From Micromonospora sp. NBC_01699 (GTDB lineage: Bacteria; Actinomycetota; Actinomycetes; Mycobacteriales; Micromonosporaceae), in NCBI RefSeq assembly GCF_036250065.1, contig NZ_CP109199.1, positions 7,812,083-7,876,082 of the forward strand: 64,000 bases of DNA, given 5' to 3'. The first letter of the stretch is position 1; the number at the start of each line of letters is the position of its first letter. Below the pieces are notes generated by a model. The model was not told the origin of the DNA, made no database searches, and saw only the letters and a program-made list of their open reading frames with translations. Made by a program: the position numbers and the translations under genes. This document shows, piece after piece, positions 11,798 to 38,416 of this stretch.

Positions 11798-11865
11798 ACC
11801 CCCAATCCTCCCGCACCCACCCCCACCCCCCACCCCCACCCCGCTCCCACCCACCCCCACACTCG

Positions 11866-11926
11866 GTTGATCATGAAGTTAGCGACAAAATTCAGGCTCG
11901 AAATCGTCGCTAACTTCATGATCAAC
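11866..11926. repeat. Palindromic intergenic repeat element, copy 1 (18-bp terminal inverted repeats GTTGATCATGAAGTTAGC / GCTAACTTCATGATCAAC around an inner hairpin). A 60-bp C-rich tract is at 11800-11860.
   Basis: Read directly from the sequence. Identical termini occur at the four other loci listed as features. Confidence 0.85.
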
Positions 11927-11933
11927 GCGGTTT

Positions 11934-13859
11934 TTAGAGAGTGCGGGAGAGGCGGTCGGAGAGGAGGCGGGCGAAACGGGCGGGGTCGGTCAGTTCCCCG
12001 CCCTCGGCCAGCAGGGCGGTGCCGTAGAGGAGTTCGGCGGTTTCGGCGATCGCCGGGTCCTCGGGGCGCTGCTCGTGGGCCTTACGCAGGCCGGTGACCA
12101 GCGCGTGCGTCGGGTTCAGTTCGAGGACCCGCTTGATCTGCGGCACCTCCTGGCCCATGGCGCGGTACATCCGCTCCAGGGTCGGGGTCATGTCCTGGGC
12201 GTCACCGACCAGGATCGCCGGGGAGGTGGTCAGGCGGGACGAGAGGCGTACCTCCTTCACCTGCTCCTCAAGCTGTGTCGACAGCCAGGTGAGCAGCGCG
12301 GCGTACTCCTCCTTCTGCTGGTCGCGCTCGGGCTCGTCGGCCTTGTCCTCGCCGTCGGCGTCCAGGTCTACCTGCCCCTTGGCGATCGACCGCAACTGCT
12401 TGCCGTCGAAGTCGCGGACCGCCTCGACCCACATCTCGTCAACCGGGTCGGTGAGCAGCAGCACCTCGTAGCCCTTGGCGTTGAAGGCTTCCATGTGCGG
12501 CGAGTTCTCGATCATCTTGCGGGACTCGCCGGTCATGTAATAGATGTCGGTCTGCCCCTCCTTCATCCGGTCGACGTACTGCTGGAGCGTGACCACCTGC
12601 TCCGGGTCGTGGGTGGAGGCGAACGAGGAGATGTCGAGAATTGCACGCTGGTTCTCGAAGTCGTTGAGCAGGCCCTCCTTGACCGCCCGGCCGAACTCCC
12701 GCCAGAAGGTGCCGTACTTGTCGGCGTCCTGGGCCATCAGGTCCTTGACCGTCGACAGCACCTTCTTGACCAGGCGACGACGCATCAGCTGGATCTGACG
12801 GTCCTGCTGGAGGATCTCCCGCGAGATGTTGAGCGAGAGGTCGTGCGCGTCGACCACGCCCTTGACGAAGCGCAGGTACTCCGGCATCAGCGCCTGGCAG
12901 TCGTCCATGATGAAGACGCGCTTGACGTAGAGCTGGATGCCGAGCTTGGCGTCGCGGGTGAACAGGTCGAACGGCGCCTGCGACGGGATGAAGAGCAGCG
13001 CCTCGTACTCGAAGGTGCCCTCGCCCTTCATCCGGATGATTTCGAGCGGGTCGTTCCAGTCGCGGCTGACGTGCCGGTAGAACTCGTTGTACTCGTCGTC
13101 GCCGACCTCGTTGCGGGGCCGGGCCCAGAGCGCCTTCATCGAGTTGAGGGTCTTGACCTCGTGCTTCGGGGCGTCGTCACCCTCGCCGTCGGTGACCGGC
13201 CGCTCGACCTGCATCCGGATCGGCCAGGCGATGAAGTCGGAGTAGCGCTTGACCAGCTCCCTGATCTTCCATTCACCGGTGTAGTCGAAGAGCTGGTCCT
13301 CCTCGTCCTCCGGCTTGAGGTGCACGGTGACGGCCGTGCCTTGCGGTGCGTCGGCGACCGGCTCGATGGTGTACGTCCCGGCGCCGTCCGACTCCCAACG
13401 GGTGCCGTCCTCCTCGCCCACCCGCCGGCTGACCAGCGATACCCTGTCGGCCACCATGAAGGTGGAGTAGAAACCGACTCCGAACTGGCCGATCAGGTCC
13501 TGCGACGCCGCCGCGTCCTTCGTCTCCTTCAGCTGCCGCAGCAGCTCGGCGGTGCCGGACTTCGCGATCGTGCCGATGAGCCCGACGACCTCGTCCCGCG
13601 ACATGCCGATGCCGTTGTCCCGTACGGTCAGCGTGCGCTGCTCCCGGTCGACTTCGATCTCGATGTGCAGATCGGACGTGTCGACCTGCAACTCCTTGTC
13701 GACCAGCGACTCCAGCCTCAGCTTGTCCAGCGCGTCGGAGGCGTTGGAGATCAGTTCGCGCAGGAAGATGTCCTTGTTCGAATAGATCGAGTGGATCATC
13801 AACTGCAAGAGCTGGCGCGCCTCGGCCTGGAACTCAAGCGTTTCGACCCCGGTGCTCAT
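11934..13859 (-). CDS. htpG: Molecular chaperone HtpG (Hsp90)
   Basis: MSTGVETLEFQAEARQLLQLMIHSIYSNKDIFLRELISNASDALDKLR, the GHKL ATPase domain, 642 aa. The track ORF 11934..14453 carries a spurious N-terminal extension. The start ATG at 13857-13859 is preceded by GGAAAGGGG. Confidence 0.9.
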   Translation of the reverse strand: MSTGVETLEFQAEARQLLQLMIHSIYSNKDIFLRELISNASDALDKLRLESLVDKELQVDTSDLHIEIEVDREQRTLTVRDNGIGMSRDEVVGLIGTIAKSGTAELLRQLKETKDAAASQDLIGQFGVGFYSTFMVADRVSLVSRRVGEEDGTRWESDGAGTYTIEPVADAPQGTAVTVHLKPEDEEDQLFDYTGEWKIRELVKRYSDFIAWPIRMQVERPVTDGEGDDAPKHEVKTLNSMKALWARPRNEVGDDEYNEFYRHVSRDWNDPLEIIRMKGEGTFEYEALLFIPSQAPFDLFTRDAKLGIQLYVKRVFIMDDCQALMPEYLRFVKGVVDAHDLSLNISREILQQDRQIQLMRRRLVKKVLSTVKDLMAQDADKYGTFWREFGRAVKEGLLNDFENQRAILDISSFASTHDPEQVVTLQQYVDRMKEGQTDIYYMTGESRKMIENSPHMEAFNAKGYEVLLLTDPVDEMWVEAVRDFDGKQLRSIAKGQVDLDADGEDKADEPERDQQKEEYAALLTWLSTQLEEQVKEVRLSSRLTTSPAILVGDAQDMTPTLERMYRAMGQEVPQIKRVLELNPTHALVTGLRKAHEQRPEDPAIAETAELLYGTALLAEGGELTDPARFARLLSDRLSRTL

Positions 13860-13960
13860 GGAACCCCTTTCCGACTGTCGGACCTTCCTGACGGATCGTA
13901 CGACCTCGGTCACGATCTCCACTGTCGGCGGTTGGACGGTGGCGGGTACCGCCCCCGCGG

Positions 13961-36010: not shown

Positions 36011-36095
36011 GGGGCTGGGGTGGGGGTTATCCACAGGGGGGGTGGGGGTTGTGCACAGGGGGTGGTGGGAGGGGGTGGAAGGGGGGTGGGTCGGG

Positions 36096-37024
36096 GGATG
36101 GATGGGATGACGTTGGTTCGGCGGGTGGCGGCGGGGCAGGACGGGGTGGTGACTCGGGAGCAGGCGTTGGCCGCGGGGTTGACGGTGCGGGAGATCGATC
36201 GACTGTGTCGCAGCCGCGAGTGGCGGAGGCTGGCTCGGGCGGCGTACCTGGTGGATCTGACGCCGAGTCCGGTGGCGGCGCGGCGAGCCCGGATCCGGGC
36301 GGCAGTCGCCTCGTTCGGGGAGCTGGCGACGGCGGTGCTCGGGACCTCGGCCGAGTTGCACGGGTTGGCGGGACTGCGGCCGGATGCGCGGATCCACGTC
36401 TCCGTACCCGGCCCGGCCGCCCGACCGCTGCGATCGAAAGATCCGGCCGTGGTGGTGCACCAGCTCGTGATCCCGGCCGGGCAGATCGGCACGGTCGCCG
36501 GGATCCGAACCACCACCGCGACCCGTACGGCCGCCGACCTGGCACTCCGGGTGGACCGCTTCGCGGCCGTGTCGCTGCTGGACTCGGCTCTGCACCAGGG
36601 CTCGATCACCGAGCCGGACCTGCTGGTCGTACGCGCGCTGCTCGCCCGGCGCCGAGGTGCGGTGGCCGCCCGGCGTCACCTGGCCGAGGCGGACGGGCGG
36701 GCCGAGTCCCCACTGGAGACCCGGGTACGCCTGCGTTGCGTGGACGGTGGCGTACCACCGGACGCACTACAGCACCCGGTACGCGACGACGACGGCCACC
36801 TGCTGGCCGTGGGCGATCTCGCCTGGCTCCGCGAACGGATCATCGGCGAAGCCGACGGCGCGCTCGTACACGCCACCCCGGAAGCCCTCTACCGCGACCG
36901 CCGCCGCCAGAACCTGATCGCCAACGCCGGCTGGCGCGTACTCCGCTTCACCTGGGCCGACACCCTGAACCCCACCTACATCCCCACCACCATCCGCGCC
37001 GCCCAGACCCACCCGGCCCGTTGA
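36096..37024 (+). CDS. Protein with an AbiEi-type N-terminal domain and a DUF559 (Vsr-endonuclease-like) C-terminal domain
   Basis: MDGMTLVRRVAAGQDGVVTREQALAAGLTVREIDRLCRS... C-terminal ...NLIANAGWRVLRFTWADT. It lies exactly between repeat copies 4 and 5. Its TGA stop is inside copy 5. Confidence 0.65.
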
Positions 37025-37080
37025 CCATGAAGTTAGCGACGGTTCGGAGCACGTTTCCGGTCGCTAACTTCATGATCAAC
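37020..37080. repeat. Palindromic intergenic repeat element, copy 5 (GTTGACCATGAAGTTAGCGACGG...CCGGTCGCTAACTTCATGATCAAC). It is followed by three 21-bp tandem repeats GGCGGTCAGAGGAGGGRGTGG at 37087-37150.
   Basis: Direct reading. It overlaps the DUF559 gene stop codon. The downstream tandem repeats run into the purA 3' end. Confidence 0.85.
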
Positions 37081-37129
37081 GAACGAGGGCGGTCAGAGGA
37101 GGGGGTGGCGGTCAGAGGAGGGAGGGCGG

Positions 37130-38416
37130 TCAGAGGAGGGGGTGGCGGACTACGTTTTCCTCTCGGCCGGGGCCTACGCCGACCACGGAGACGCGGGTGC
37201 CGCAGAGTTCTTCGATCCGGGCTATGTAGCGGCGGGCGTTCTCCGGGAGCTCAGCCTCGGTGCGGGCCTTGGTGATGTCCTCCCACCAGCCGTCGTGCTC
37301 CTCGTAGATCGGGGTCGCGTGGTGGAAAGCGGTCTGCGTCATCGGCATGTCGCTGAACCGTTCGCCGTCGATCTCGTAGCCGACGCAGATCGGCACCTTC
37401 TCCAAGCCGGTGAGCACGTCCAGCTTGGTGACGACCAGATCCGTGATGCCGTTCAGGCGGGTCGCGTACCGGGCGACCACGGCGTCGAACCAGCCGGTCC
37501 GCCGCTCGCGGCCGGTGGTGGTGCCGTACTCGACGCCGACCTTGCGCAGGTGCATGCCGTTCTCGTCGAACAGCTCGGTCGGGAACGGACCGGAACCCAC
37601 CCGCGTGGTGTACGCCTTGGTCACCCCGATCACCTTCGTGATCGCCGTCGGCGGGATGCCCGCCCCCACGCAGGCCCCGCCCGCGGTCGGATTCGACGAG
37701 GTCACGAACGGGTACGTGCCGTGGTCCATGTCCAGCATGGTCGCCTGGGCGCCCTCCAGCAGCACCGTCTCGCCCCGGTCGAGCGCGTCCCAGAGGATCG
37801 CCCGGGTCTCCGCGATGTACGGCCGCAGCCGCTTCGCGTACTCCAGGTACTCCTCGGTCACCGCGTCGACGTCCAGCGCCTTGCGGTTGTAGACCTTGAA
37901 CAGCATCTGGTTCTTCTCGCGCAACGCGAGTTCCAGCTTCTTGCGCAGGATGCCCGGATCGAGCAGGTCCTGTAGCCGGATGCCCATCCGGGCGACCTTG
38001 TCGCCGTACGCCGGGCCGATGCCACGGCCGGTGGTGCCGATCCGGGCCGAGCCGAGGTAACGCTCGACCACCCGGTCCAGCGCCCGGTGGTGCGGCATGA
38101 TCAGGTGCGCGTCGCCGGAGATCCGCAGCCGGGAGACGTCGACGCCCCGCTCGGCCAGTCCGTCGATCTCGGCCAGCAGCACCTTCGGGTCGACCACCAC
38201 CCCGTTGCCGATCACGATCATCGCGTTCGGCGAAAGTGCGCCGGACGGCATCAGGTGCAGTGCGTACTTCTGCCCGTCCGGGGTGATCACGGTGTGTCCG
38301 GCATTATTACCACCGGAGTAACGGACGACGTAGTGGACCTGCTCGCCGAGCAGGTCGGTAACCTTGCCTTTGCCCTCGTCGCCCCACTGCGCCCCGATGA
38401 GCACGATCGCTGGCAT
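37130..38416 (-). CDS. purA: Adenylosuccinate synthetase (PurA)
   Basis: [43 protein letters not shown], the GTP-binding P-loop. 428 aa. Confidence 0.9.

Follow-up and report, generated by a model that had tools for sequence, protein, structure and literature searches.

The question raised by a 64,000-nucleotide stretch of DNA from Micromonospora sp. NBC_01699 (contig NZ_CP109199.1, positions 7,812,083 to 7,876,082, henceforth the window) is what five intergenic palindromes of about 60 bp do there and how they spread. An earlier note on this DNA had judged that a mobile or recombinogenic element, akin to the small transposable elements with inverted repeats known as MITEs or to repetitive extragenic palindromic (REP) sequences, fits them better than a simple terminator. 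It is close to certain that the palindromes are real members of a dispersed repeat family found throughout the genus Micromonospora. The family is apparently previously undescribed: full-text literature searches for the arm sequence and for Micromonospora repeats, G-quadruplexes or MITEs turned up no description of it, and in Rfam no family reaches its gathering score in the window, where an E-value threshold returns only generic hairpins far below it. The reading that we put first, and to which we give an even chance of being right, is that of a dispersed palindrome resembling the REPINs (REP doublets) and the TRIT (Tuberculosis Rho-independent terminator) and acting as a bidirectional transcript-end module without a U-tract.

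When the 18-nt arm GTTGATCATGAAGTTAGC was searched for across the window with up to three mismatches, exactly 10 matches were obtained against 0.01 expected from shuffles, and they pair up as five inverted pairs. Six of these arms are exact and four carry one mismatch. The 18-bp termini that had been called identical are thus conserved and near-identical rather than strictly the same, and they form inverted repeats of 18–21 bp in all five copies. A covariance model built from 111 family members recovered the same five palindromes, exactly where the earlier note had placed them, with scores of 57–68 bits, and found no further strong copy in the 64 kb, only a weak relative at 23293–23362. Their convergent, divergent and co-directional gene contexts also hold copy by copy:

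11866–11926: copy 1 (61 bp, 65 bits), whose 21-bp arms pair perfectly around a 19-nt loop, between the purB start (11758) and the htpG stop (11934), both on the minus strand and co-directional; left C-rich tract at 11771–11863, including (CCCACC)n at 11816–11860 (Tandem Repeats Finder), and a mirrored right G-rich tract at about 11929–11991.
16371–16431: copy 2, between the stop of an aldo-keto reductase gene (16352, plus strand) and the stop of a thiolase gene (16480, minus strand), convergent; short left C-rich tract at 16329–16368, running into the 3' end of the reductase gene; right G-rich tract at 16434–16498, with (GGGTGG)n at 16439–16480 (Tandem Repeats Finder).
25866–25925: copy 3, 60 bp, past the stop of a DUF3686 ATPase gene (25940, minus strand) and before a small minus-strand gene, co-directional; C-rich tract at about 25764–25863, G-rich tract at about 25928–26009.
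35950–36010: copy 4 (68 bits), between the purD start (minus strand) and the start of the AbiEi/DUF559 gene, divergent; left C-rich tract at about 35876–35947; right G-rich tract at 36011–36106, in which a 22-nt unit GGGGTGGGGGTTATCCACAGGG, carrying DnaA-box-like TTATCCACA and TTGTGCACA, is repeated 2.4 times within 36017–36106.
36107–37024, plus strand: a gene for an AbiEi-type helix-turn-helix (HTH) and DUF559 (Vsr-like nuclease) protein, with marginal Pfam scores.
37020–37080: copy 5, with the AbiEi/DUF559 stop on one side and that of purA (37130, minus strand) on the other, convergent; right tract at 37085–37148, made of 3.3 copies of a 19-nt G-rich unit (GGCGGTCAGAGGAGGGGGT).
23293–23362: a sixth, diverged relative (20.7 bits), absent from the earlier note, with arms CCCCGTCGATCTAGGGCAAAT and a 28-nt loop; its (CCCACC)n C-rich tract (23239–23296) opens at the upstream gene's stop codon, and G-rich sequence lies 3' of the palindrome.

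The relative at 23293–23362 shows that the family belongs to a wider set of GATC-core palindromes. The tracts that had been written as (GGGGGT)n are indeed repeats, but with other units, namely the (GGGTGG)n beside copy 2 and the 22-nt repeat beside copy 4.

Species-representative genomes were scanned with the pattern TGATCATGAAGTT-N15-45-AACTTCATGATCA, which yielded at least 120 loci in dozens of Micromonospora species, almost all of them from named species of the genus with a few actinomycete metagenome-assembled genomes. The motif is therefore not confined to the window, as the proposal of a dispersed REP-like repeat had anticipated. The statistics that follow, on lengths, flanks, gene contexts and loops, rest on the copies among the matches listed from these loci. 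The span from TGATCA to TGATCA is exactly 57 nt in 107 of 122 copies, and the 85 orientable copies share a fixed layout: the arm TGATCATGAAGTT, a 6-base inner stem (mostly RTTGCC), a 19-nt loop, and the complementary inner stem and arm. The arm reads cG[T/G]TGATCATGAAGTT, with a 5' end of GTTG or GGTG, and is not itself palindromic except for TGATCA. Within the loop, the first half is NCGACACGCCG at the same position in 78 of the 85 copies, and most copies hold the asymmetric motif CGACACGCCG, which contains GACAC, at a fixed position (model positions 22–30, for example at 3132–3188 of locus L039) and in either orientation relative to the locus (42 versus 48). The window copies form a minority subfamily with AGCGAC- or AGCAAC-like inner stems and A/T-rich loops that lack GACACGCCG and GACAC. 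Relaxed searches returned further variant subfamilies with matched changes in both arms (CGATCATGGAGTTGTGGTG...CACCACAACTCCATGATCG, TGATCAAGAGGTT...AACCTCTTGATCA and CGATCTTGCACTTTC), and every one of them retains a GATC core close to the outer end. Extra copies flanking the fetched loci point to a density of roughly one per 75 kb in a typical genome, which the window exceeds with its five copies in 25 kb.

How do these copies lie relative to genes? With gene orientation called crudely from third-position GC, 59 of 107 copies are found between convergent genes, 42 between co-directional genes and 6 between divergent genes, far from the 25/50/25 expectation (chi-square p = 3e-13). In co-directional pairs the median distance of the palindrome from the stop of the gene before it is 25 nt, and that to the start of the gene after it is 74 nt. 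Often the stop codon of the upstream gene is a TGA inside the arm, with the C-rich tract then coding for the C-terminal residues, as at 37022–37024 in the window, 4754–4756 of locus L125, 4934–4936 of locus L126 and several further loci. With placement so strongly terminator-like, the judgment that a mobile element is the better fit is not upheld. The orientation of the loop relative to the direction of co-directional genes was not significantly biased (19 versus 10).

The palindrome folds into a stem of 19–23 bp with a loop of 19 nt, and as RNA the window copies have folding energies between −37 and −47 kcal/mol (z-scores −7 to −11). Copy 1 folds at −38.1 kcal/mol (z −9.0), copy 2 at −37.1 kcal/mol alone and at −102 kcal/mol for 151 nt including its tracts, and the relative at 23293–23362 at −46.6 kcal/mol (z −11). 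The centre differs between copies and still pairs, in line with the earlier description of conserved termini around a variable centre. That centre had been called a hairpin in itself; its pairing is borne out, and is better described as five or six extra stem pairs and a 19-nt loop, sometimes with a mini-stem of 3–5 bp. Covariation was assessed on an alignment of 111 copies with 500 shuffles and slid-partner controls. The 13 outer arm pairs are invariant, which is in part imposed by the search pattern, while six inner pairs and the first flanking pair covary, one pair being UA in 80 copies, GC in 23 and AU in 3. Cells changed on both sides number 144 against 63.7 ± 6.2 in shuffled alignments, a value reached by none of the 500 shuffles, although subfamily ancestry inflates these counts, and the signal is gone when the partners are slid. 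Because the inner stem covaries, intrastrand pairing, or a mechanism that keeps the arms complementary, must be maintained.

Every copy has a C-rich tract 5' and a G-rich, G-quadruplex-capable tract 3', and this polarity is constant whatever the orientation of the genes. C-runs on one side and G-runs on the other, first seen in the window, are confirmed there and across 118 copies, in which the left flank averages 50–58% C and 18–24% G over 60–100 nt and the right flank mirrors it. The C-minus-G skew is about 0.5 on both sides over about 60 nt, and it is the same facing gene 3' ends (0.49, n = 129) as facing 5' ends (0.50, n = 40); ordinary GC-rich hairpins of the same loci show no such C/G skew. 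At least four runs of C3+ occur in 77% of flanks versus 3.6% of random 60-mers, and a canonical G-quadruplex motif occurs in 8 of 12 window flanks versus 1.5% of random 120-mers, an enrichment of about 40-fold; in the C-rich tract of copy 1 such motifs lie on the minus strand. The unit is mirror-symmetric, and therefore each strand reads C-rich tract, hairpin, G-rich tract. Since the polarity is present on both strands, a process that runs in one direction, such as replication or the transcription of a single gene, cannot be its source. It has to depend on the palindrome itself, by way of selection on the folded unit or of a symmetric mechanism at work on the hairpin.

The tracts are microsatellite-like, as in (CCCACC)n and (GGGTGG)n, with a median length of about 60 nt on each side, and together they can lengthen the stem to more than 60 bp. 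We considered whether they form a specific extension of the stem, and this was not upheld. Own flanks pair at −66 versus −62.6 kcal/mol for chimeric ones (p = 0.009), and since own partners pair barely better than chimeric ones, the complementarity is mainly compositional; left and right lengths are only weakly correlated (r = 0.20). The right tract of copy 5 differs in M. pisi, where four copies of a 12-nt unit (GACGAGGAGATC) stand at the same place (locus L125, about 4810–4860), a difference that illustrates rapid tract turnover. At locus L103 (about 7390–7560, minus-strand view) the C-rich tract is unusually long and consists of at least five copies of a 20-nt CGCCGCGTGCCCGCCGCCCT-like tandem repeat.

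How might such a unit act? We propose a bidirectional transcript-end module for a high-GC host that would largely do without U-tract terminators. In high-GC Streptomyces, canonical U-tract terminators account for 4–6.6% of 3' ends, and long stable hairpins, Rho and processing have been invoked (PMC12207403). Whichever side it came from, a polymerase would begin with the transcription of a C-rich, G-poor stretch like a Rho loading site, go on to a very stable hairpin that might make it pause and shield the 3' end of the RNA, and come last to the G-rich stretch, which might pair back with the C-rich tract or fold as a G-quadruplex; copies might occasionally serve as recombination points as well. 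Rho loading sites are C-rich, G-poor stretches of about 60–80 nt upstream of a pause site, and the 60 nt before the hairpin, with C at 0.50–0.58 and G at 0.18–0.22 on both strands, match them by composition only. We infer a terminator function from the placement, the stability of the hairpin, the composition of the C-rich tract and the precedents discussed below, and consider the case for it evenly balanced. A canonical intrinsic terminator was rejected, as there is no U-tract, the right flank is 10–17% T, and at copies 4 and 5 a scan detects nothing terminator-like. A promoter was rejected likewise, with no sigma-70-like site at these two copies.

Several observations weigh against a transcript-end module. 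The U-tract is absent and the scan finds no canonical terminator; the G-rich RNA:DNA hybrid past the hairpin should resist release; and mycobacterial RNA polymerase reportedly fails to terminate in vitro at hairpins without a U-tract. The C-rich tract often overlaps the end of a coding region, where ribosomes would block Rho. Stem mismatches carry no strand-specific RNA signature, since G.U and A.C mismatches show no bias by the direction of the neighbouring gene (29 versus 25); a weak bias appears by loop orientation (55 versus 34). Flanks that are symmetric irrespective of gene orientation are not expected from locus-by-locus selection for Rho loading. Finally, a plain terminator needs neither invariant arms of 13–18 nt nor a loop motif, and a sequence-specific partner, whether a protein or a copying mechanism, is thus unaccounted for; a dedicated recognition protein for the arms is possible.

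Some of these observations would fit a site that works as DNA, that is, a duplex or cruciform with G-quadruplex or i-motif tracts, bound by a chromosomal protein (nucleoid, replication, segregation, roadblock or WhiA), for which the position at gene ends would reflect mere tolerance. Both arms are strictly conserved, far beyond the needs of pairing, the mirror symmetry is independent of gene orientation, wobble bias with transcription is absent, and the flanks are rich in G-quadruplex motifs. The loop motif CGACACGCCG, fixed in 78 of 85 copies in either orientation, is common to a subfamily with different arms (locus L069), and the GACAC within it is the published binding motif of the sporulation regulator WhiA (PMC3781837). 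However, the GACAC loop is absent from the window copies and from other subfamilies, and the covariation of the inner stem shows that pairing within a strand counts, something that a dimer binding the duplex could do without. A GC-rich centre between AT-rich arms would also disfavour cruciform extrusion, and no candidate protein was identified. We consider a DNA-level site unlikely.

A second set of observations concerns mobility. Target-site duplications were looked for at 123 copies with offsets of 0–6, lengths of 2–8 and partner-shuffled controls, and there was no excess of direct repeats flanking the copies over controls; what the flanks show instead is complementarity. In about 1 Mb of Micromonospora loci exact arms are never solitary and never bracket a transposase gene, the plasmid, phage and IMG/VR collections hold no matches to the palindrome, and about 50 open reading frames (ORFs) of the window contain no transposase, REP-associated tyrosine transposase (RAYT), Y1/HUH or integrase domain. 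The cognate tnpA or RAYT gene for which the earlier note had suggested looking is therefore not among these ORFs. At locus L124 (11930–13231, Solwaraspora sp. WMMD406), another TGATC-ended palindrome (CTGATCCCTCGGAG...CTCCGAGGGATCAG) lies past htpG, with a DDE transposase gene directly after it.

A classical MITE would be a deletion derivative of an insertion sequence, with a transposase binding its 18-bp terminal inverted repeats and moving it by cut-and-paste or copy-and-paste. The elements do have conserved inverted termini (18–21 bp, TG...CA), they are small and multi-copy, and subfamilies exist. On the other hand, no target-site duplication appears at any tested offset or length, the conserved palindrome extends into the flanking cG[T/G]...[A/C]Cg, and the copies are old and syntenic across species. 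In the absence of target-site duplications, of a transposase or RAYT gene in the window and of phage or plasmid matches, the family is not a classical MITE, a reading that we regard as largely refuted and very improbable. Of the MITE/REP-like identity first proposed, the REP-like half stands, with dispersal to at least 120 loci, and the MITE half falls, since lone arms, in about 1 Mb of loci, and plasmid, phage or IMG/VR matches are missing too. The copies must once have spread by copying, by a route other than cut-and-paste with terminal inverted repeats and target duplication. An integron attC array was also considered and rejected, given the reversed polarity (GTT...AAC versus RYYYAAC...GTTRRRY), the housekeeping genes between copies and the lack of an integrase in the window.

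How stable are the copies once in place? One site is filled in six species with identical arms, a differing loop and C/G tracts that range from about 12 to about 100 nt and cannot be aligned. In the closest available relative, whose HtpG is 95% identical, copies 1 and 2 both have counterparts at the same sites, and copy 1 is also found at its site in M. pisi; by locus, the orthologues of copy 1 are in L121 and L122 and that of copy 2 is in L121. Forty-nine orthologous pairs were found among the copies. In the closest pairs the outer flanks are 92.5% identical, the 31-nt interior 86% and the C/G tracts 60%, against a baseline of 56% for the C/G tracts of unrelated copies; in pairs whose outer flanks are at most 87% identical, the interior is at the baseline of unrelated copies. 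Loop orientation is constant in 13 of 13 orthologous pairs with more than 90% flank identity and flipped in 12 of 23 more distant pairs. In at least one of the flipped pairs (L019/L029) the inner stem comes from another subfamily, a sign that the sequence was replaced and not simply inverted. No clean empty orthologous site was recovered, as copy-free sites differ in gene content or hold an unrelated hairpin, and the boundaries of insertion are therefore undefined. At 61160–61260 the window carries an unrelated palindrome with 19-bp arms (CGAACCCGGATCCCGGTGG) and a 28-nt loop, devoid of C/G tracts and followed by 3.3 copies of (CCGGGTCGATCAG); the intergenic site in locus L099 that is orthologous to 61160–61225 holds a family copy with tracts.

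The gene between copies 4 and 5 bears on both recombination and a possible partner. The AbiEi/DUF559 gene lies between purA and purD across the genus and has a palindrome on each side in the window, in loci L016 and L023, in M. pisi and in M. rhizosphaerae. In all these two-copy loci its stop codon is inside an arm, the one in the window being the TGA within the left arm of copy 5. The gene is inverted in the window and in M. pisi relative to other species, and it is absent from locus L026 of one species, where a single palindrome is found. Inversion or deletion between two palindromic copies accounts for the inverted and missing states, and the suggestion that the elements are recombinogenic is upheld, in that copies have acted as recombination points. 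The gene is fast-evolving, with about 60% amino-acid identity where the flanking DNA is 80–87% identical. Ordinary genes are also bracketed by two copies, namely DUF1707 (locus L002) and HMG-CoA lyase (locus L097), and at the local copy density about 0.6 bracketed genes per window are expected by chance. Membership of the AbiEi/DUF559 gene in the palindrome system is uncertain. Just upstream of it, at 36017–36069, stand two direct repeats with DnaA-box-like TTATCCACA, TTGTGCACA or TTGTCCACA, each followed by GGGGG. The repeat pair is common to three species (the window, L125 at about 3700–3760 and L126 at about 3925–3975), and an operator, a promoter element and DnaA boxes are candidates for what it is.

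These loci bring in a further explanation, a REPIN-type partnership in which non-autonomous repeats are copied via a single-stranded hairpin by one dedicated, single-copy, vertically inherited nuclease or transposase, be it a RAYT-like gene elsewhere or the AbiEi-HTH/DUF559 protein. The anatomy is REPIN-like in its conserved ends, unique pairing spacers, biased flanks and orthologous persistence. Subfamilies share arm and loop variants at unrelated loci, target-site duplications are lacking as with IS200/IS605-like mechanisms, and loops flip or swap subfamily below 90% flank identity (12 of 23 pairs versus 0 of 13 above). The AbiEi/DUF559 gene, flanked by two copies in the loci named above with its stop always inside an arm, is syntenic and fast-evolving and combines DNA-binding and nuclease domains. 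Yet a Y1 or HUH transposase domain is missing from all tested window ORFs, the search for a clean insertion polymorphism found none, and ordinary genes are flanked by two copies too. The species of locus L026 has the palindrome and not the gene at that locus, the Pfam matches to DUF559 and AbiEi are marginal, and a protein that reads invariant arms should itself be better conserved. We hold such a partnership doubtful. The more specific version, in which the dedicated enzyme of a REPIN-like system would be the AbiEi-HTH/DUF559 (Vsr-like PD-(D/E)XK) nuclease rather than an HUH tyrosine transposase and the mirrored, fast-evolving G-rich tracts 3' of the hairpin on either strand would be scars of a cutting and repair by which hairpins are copied or maintained, strikes us as less probable still.

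The remainder of the window is unexceptional, at about 70% G+C, with housekeeping genes (purS/Q/L, purB, htpG, thiolase, DUF3686 ATPase, purD, purA, fructose-bisphosphate aldolase and clpB) and no tRNA or tmRNA gene found by a search of the window. A 30/61-nt tandem repeat (5.2 or 2.6 copies, about 80% matches) occupies 15242–15399, between an MFS transporter gene and the aldo-keto reductase gene. Two further ideas about the palindrome were dropped. A small MKL...NFMIN peptide encoded by it has no ribosome-binding site and contains a TTA codon, and its reading on both strands follows from the palindrome; a likeness of the arm to the 3' end of 16S rRNA amounts to GATCA alone.

Micromonospora is a major antibiotic-producing genus, and most transcript ends of high-GC actinomycetes are unexplained by canonical terminators. 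A compact, conserved module after genes across the genus is a testable candidate for the ending or insulation of transcripts, and, if it does work in this way, it would offer a bidirectional part ready for use when biosynthetic gene clusters are engineered. Its distinctive trait, for which we found no earlier description, is the pair of mirrored, quadruplex-capable C/G flanks, which have the fastest sequence turnover locally and keep their polarity. The palindrome also marks intergenic boundaries and forms a recombination hotspot able to invert or delete a gene between two copies.

Among known systems, REPINs and their RAYT transposases have been described in Pseudomonas and Enterobacteria (PMC3337134, PMC3116915), and the ends of REPINs are conserved, whereas their spacers are unique and still form hairpins and their flanks are biased in composition (PMC3337134). 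The Micromonospora family resembles them as a set of short intergenic hairpin repeats that number from tens to hundreds, their ends conserved and their spacer different from copy to copy and still pairing, with vertical inheritance and orthologous persistence, and with no target-site duplications in either. Flanks are biased in both, by A-runs 5' and T-runs 3' in GI REPINs and by C-runs 5' and G-runs 3' in Micromonospora, where they are hypervariable, G-quadruplex-capable C/G microsatellites. By contrast, no RAYT or Y1/HUH gene was found among the ORFs of the Micromonospora window, to which the search was confined, the arms are AT-rich with a GATC/TGATCA core where REPs are GC-rich with a 5' GTAG, and the arms are not themselves imperfect palindromes, as the two REPs of a doublet would be. 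The host also differs, and our literature search found no report of REPINs or RAYTs in actinomycetes.

MITEs such as the Correia elements of Neisseria are likewise small intergenic sequences in many copies that end in inverted repeats, and either kind may influence where transcripts end; the Micromonospora family differs in lacking target-site duplication, in that no parent insertion sequence was found in about 1 Mb of loci or in the plasmid, phage and IMG/VR collections, and in its ancient, syntenic copies. With bidirectional intrinsic terminators it has in common the mirror layout, complementary tracts around a stable hairpin and enrichment between convergent genes. Its tracts are C/G and not A/T, however, so that the weak rU:dA release hybrid is missing, and its hairpin is much longer (19–23 bp stem, 19-nt loop), with a stem sequence conserved across copies.

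The TRIT of Mycobacterium comprises genus-restricted, conserved, palindromic, bidirectional hairpins at gene ends (Gardner et al., 2011, PMC3152330), for which its authors inferred an extra factor binding the conserved stem (PMC3152330). Compared with TRIT as published, the Micromonospora sequence is unrelated, TRIT being shorter and GC-rich, and mirrored C/G tracts are not described for it; TRIT sits at about −8 relative to the stop codon, whereas the Micromonospora palindrome lies a median of 25 nt after it, and the terminator activity of the latter is one that we infer. What the two share is an actinobacterial host, restriction to one genus with about 100 or more copies, conservation of both sequence and structure, a palindromic and hence bidirectional form, and a place at gene ends, sometimes across the stop codon, with no canonical U-tract. 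With the Micromonospora family, the long-lived repeats of the REP/REPIN/TRIT class would gain members in a further genus of actinomycetes.

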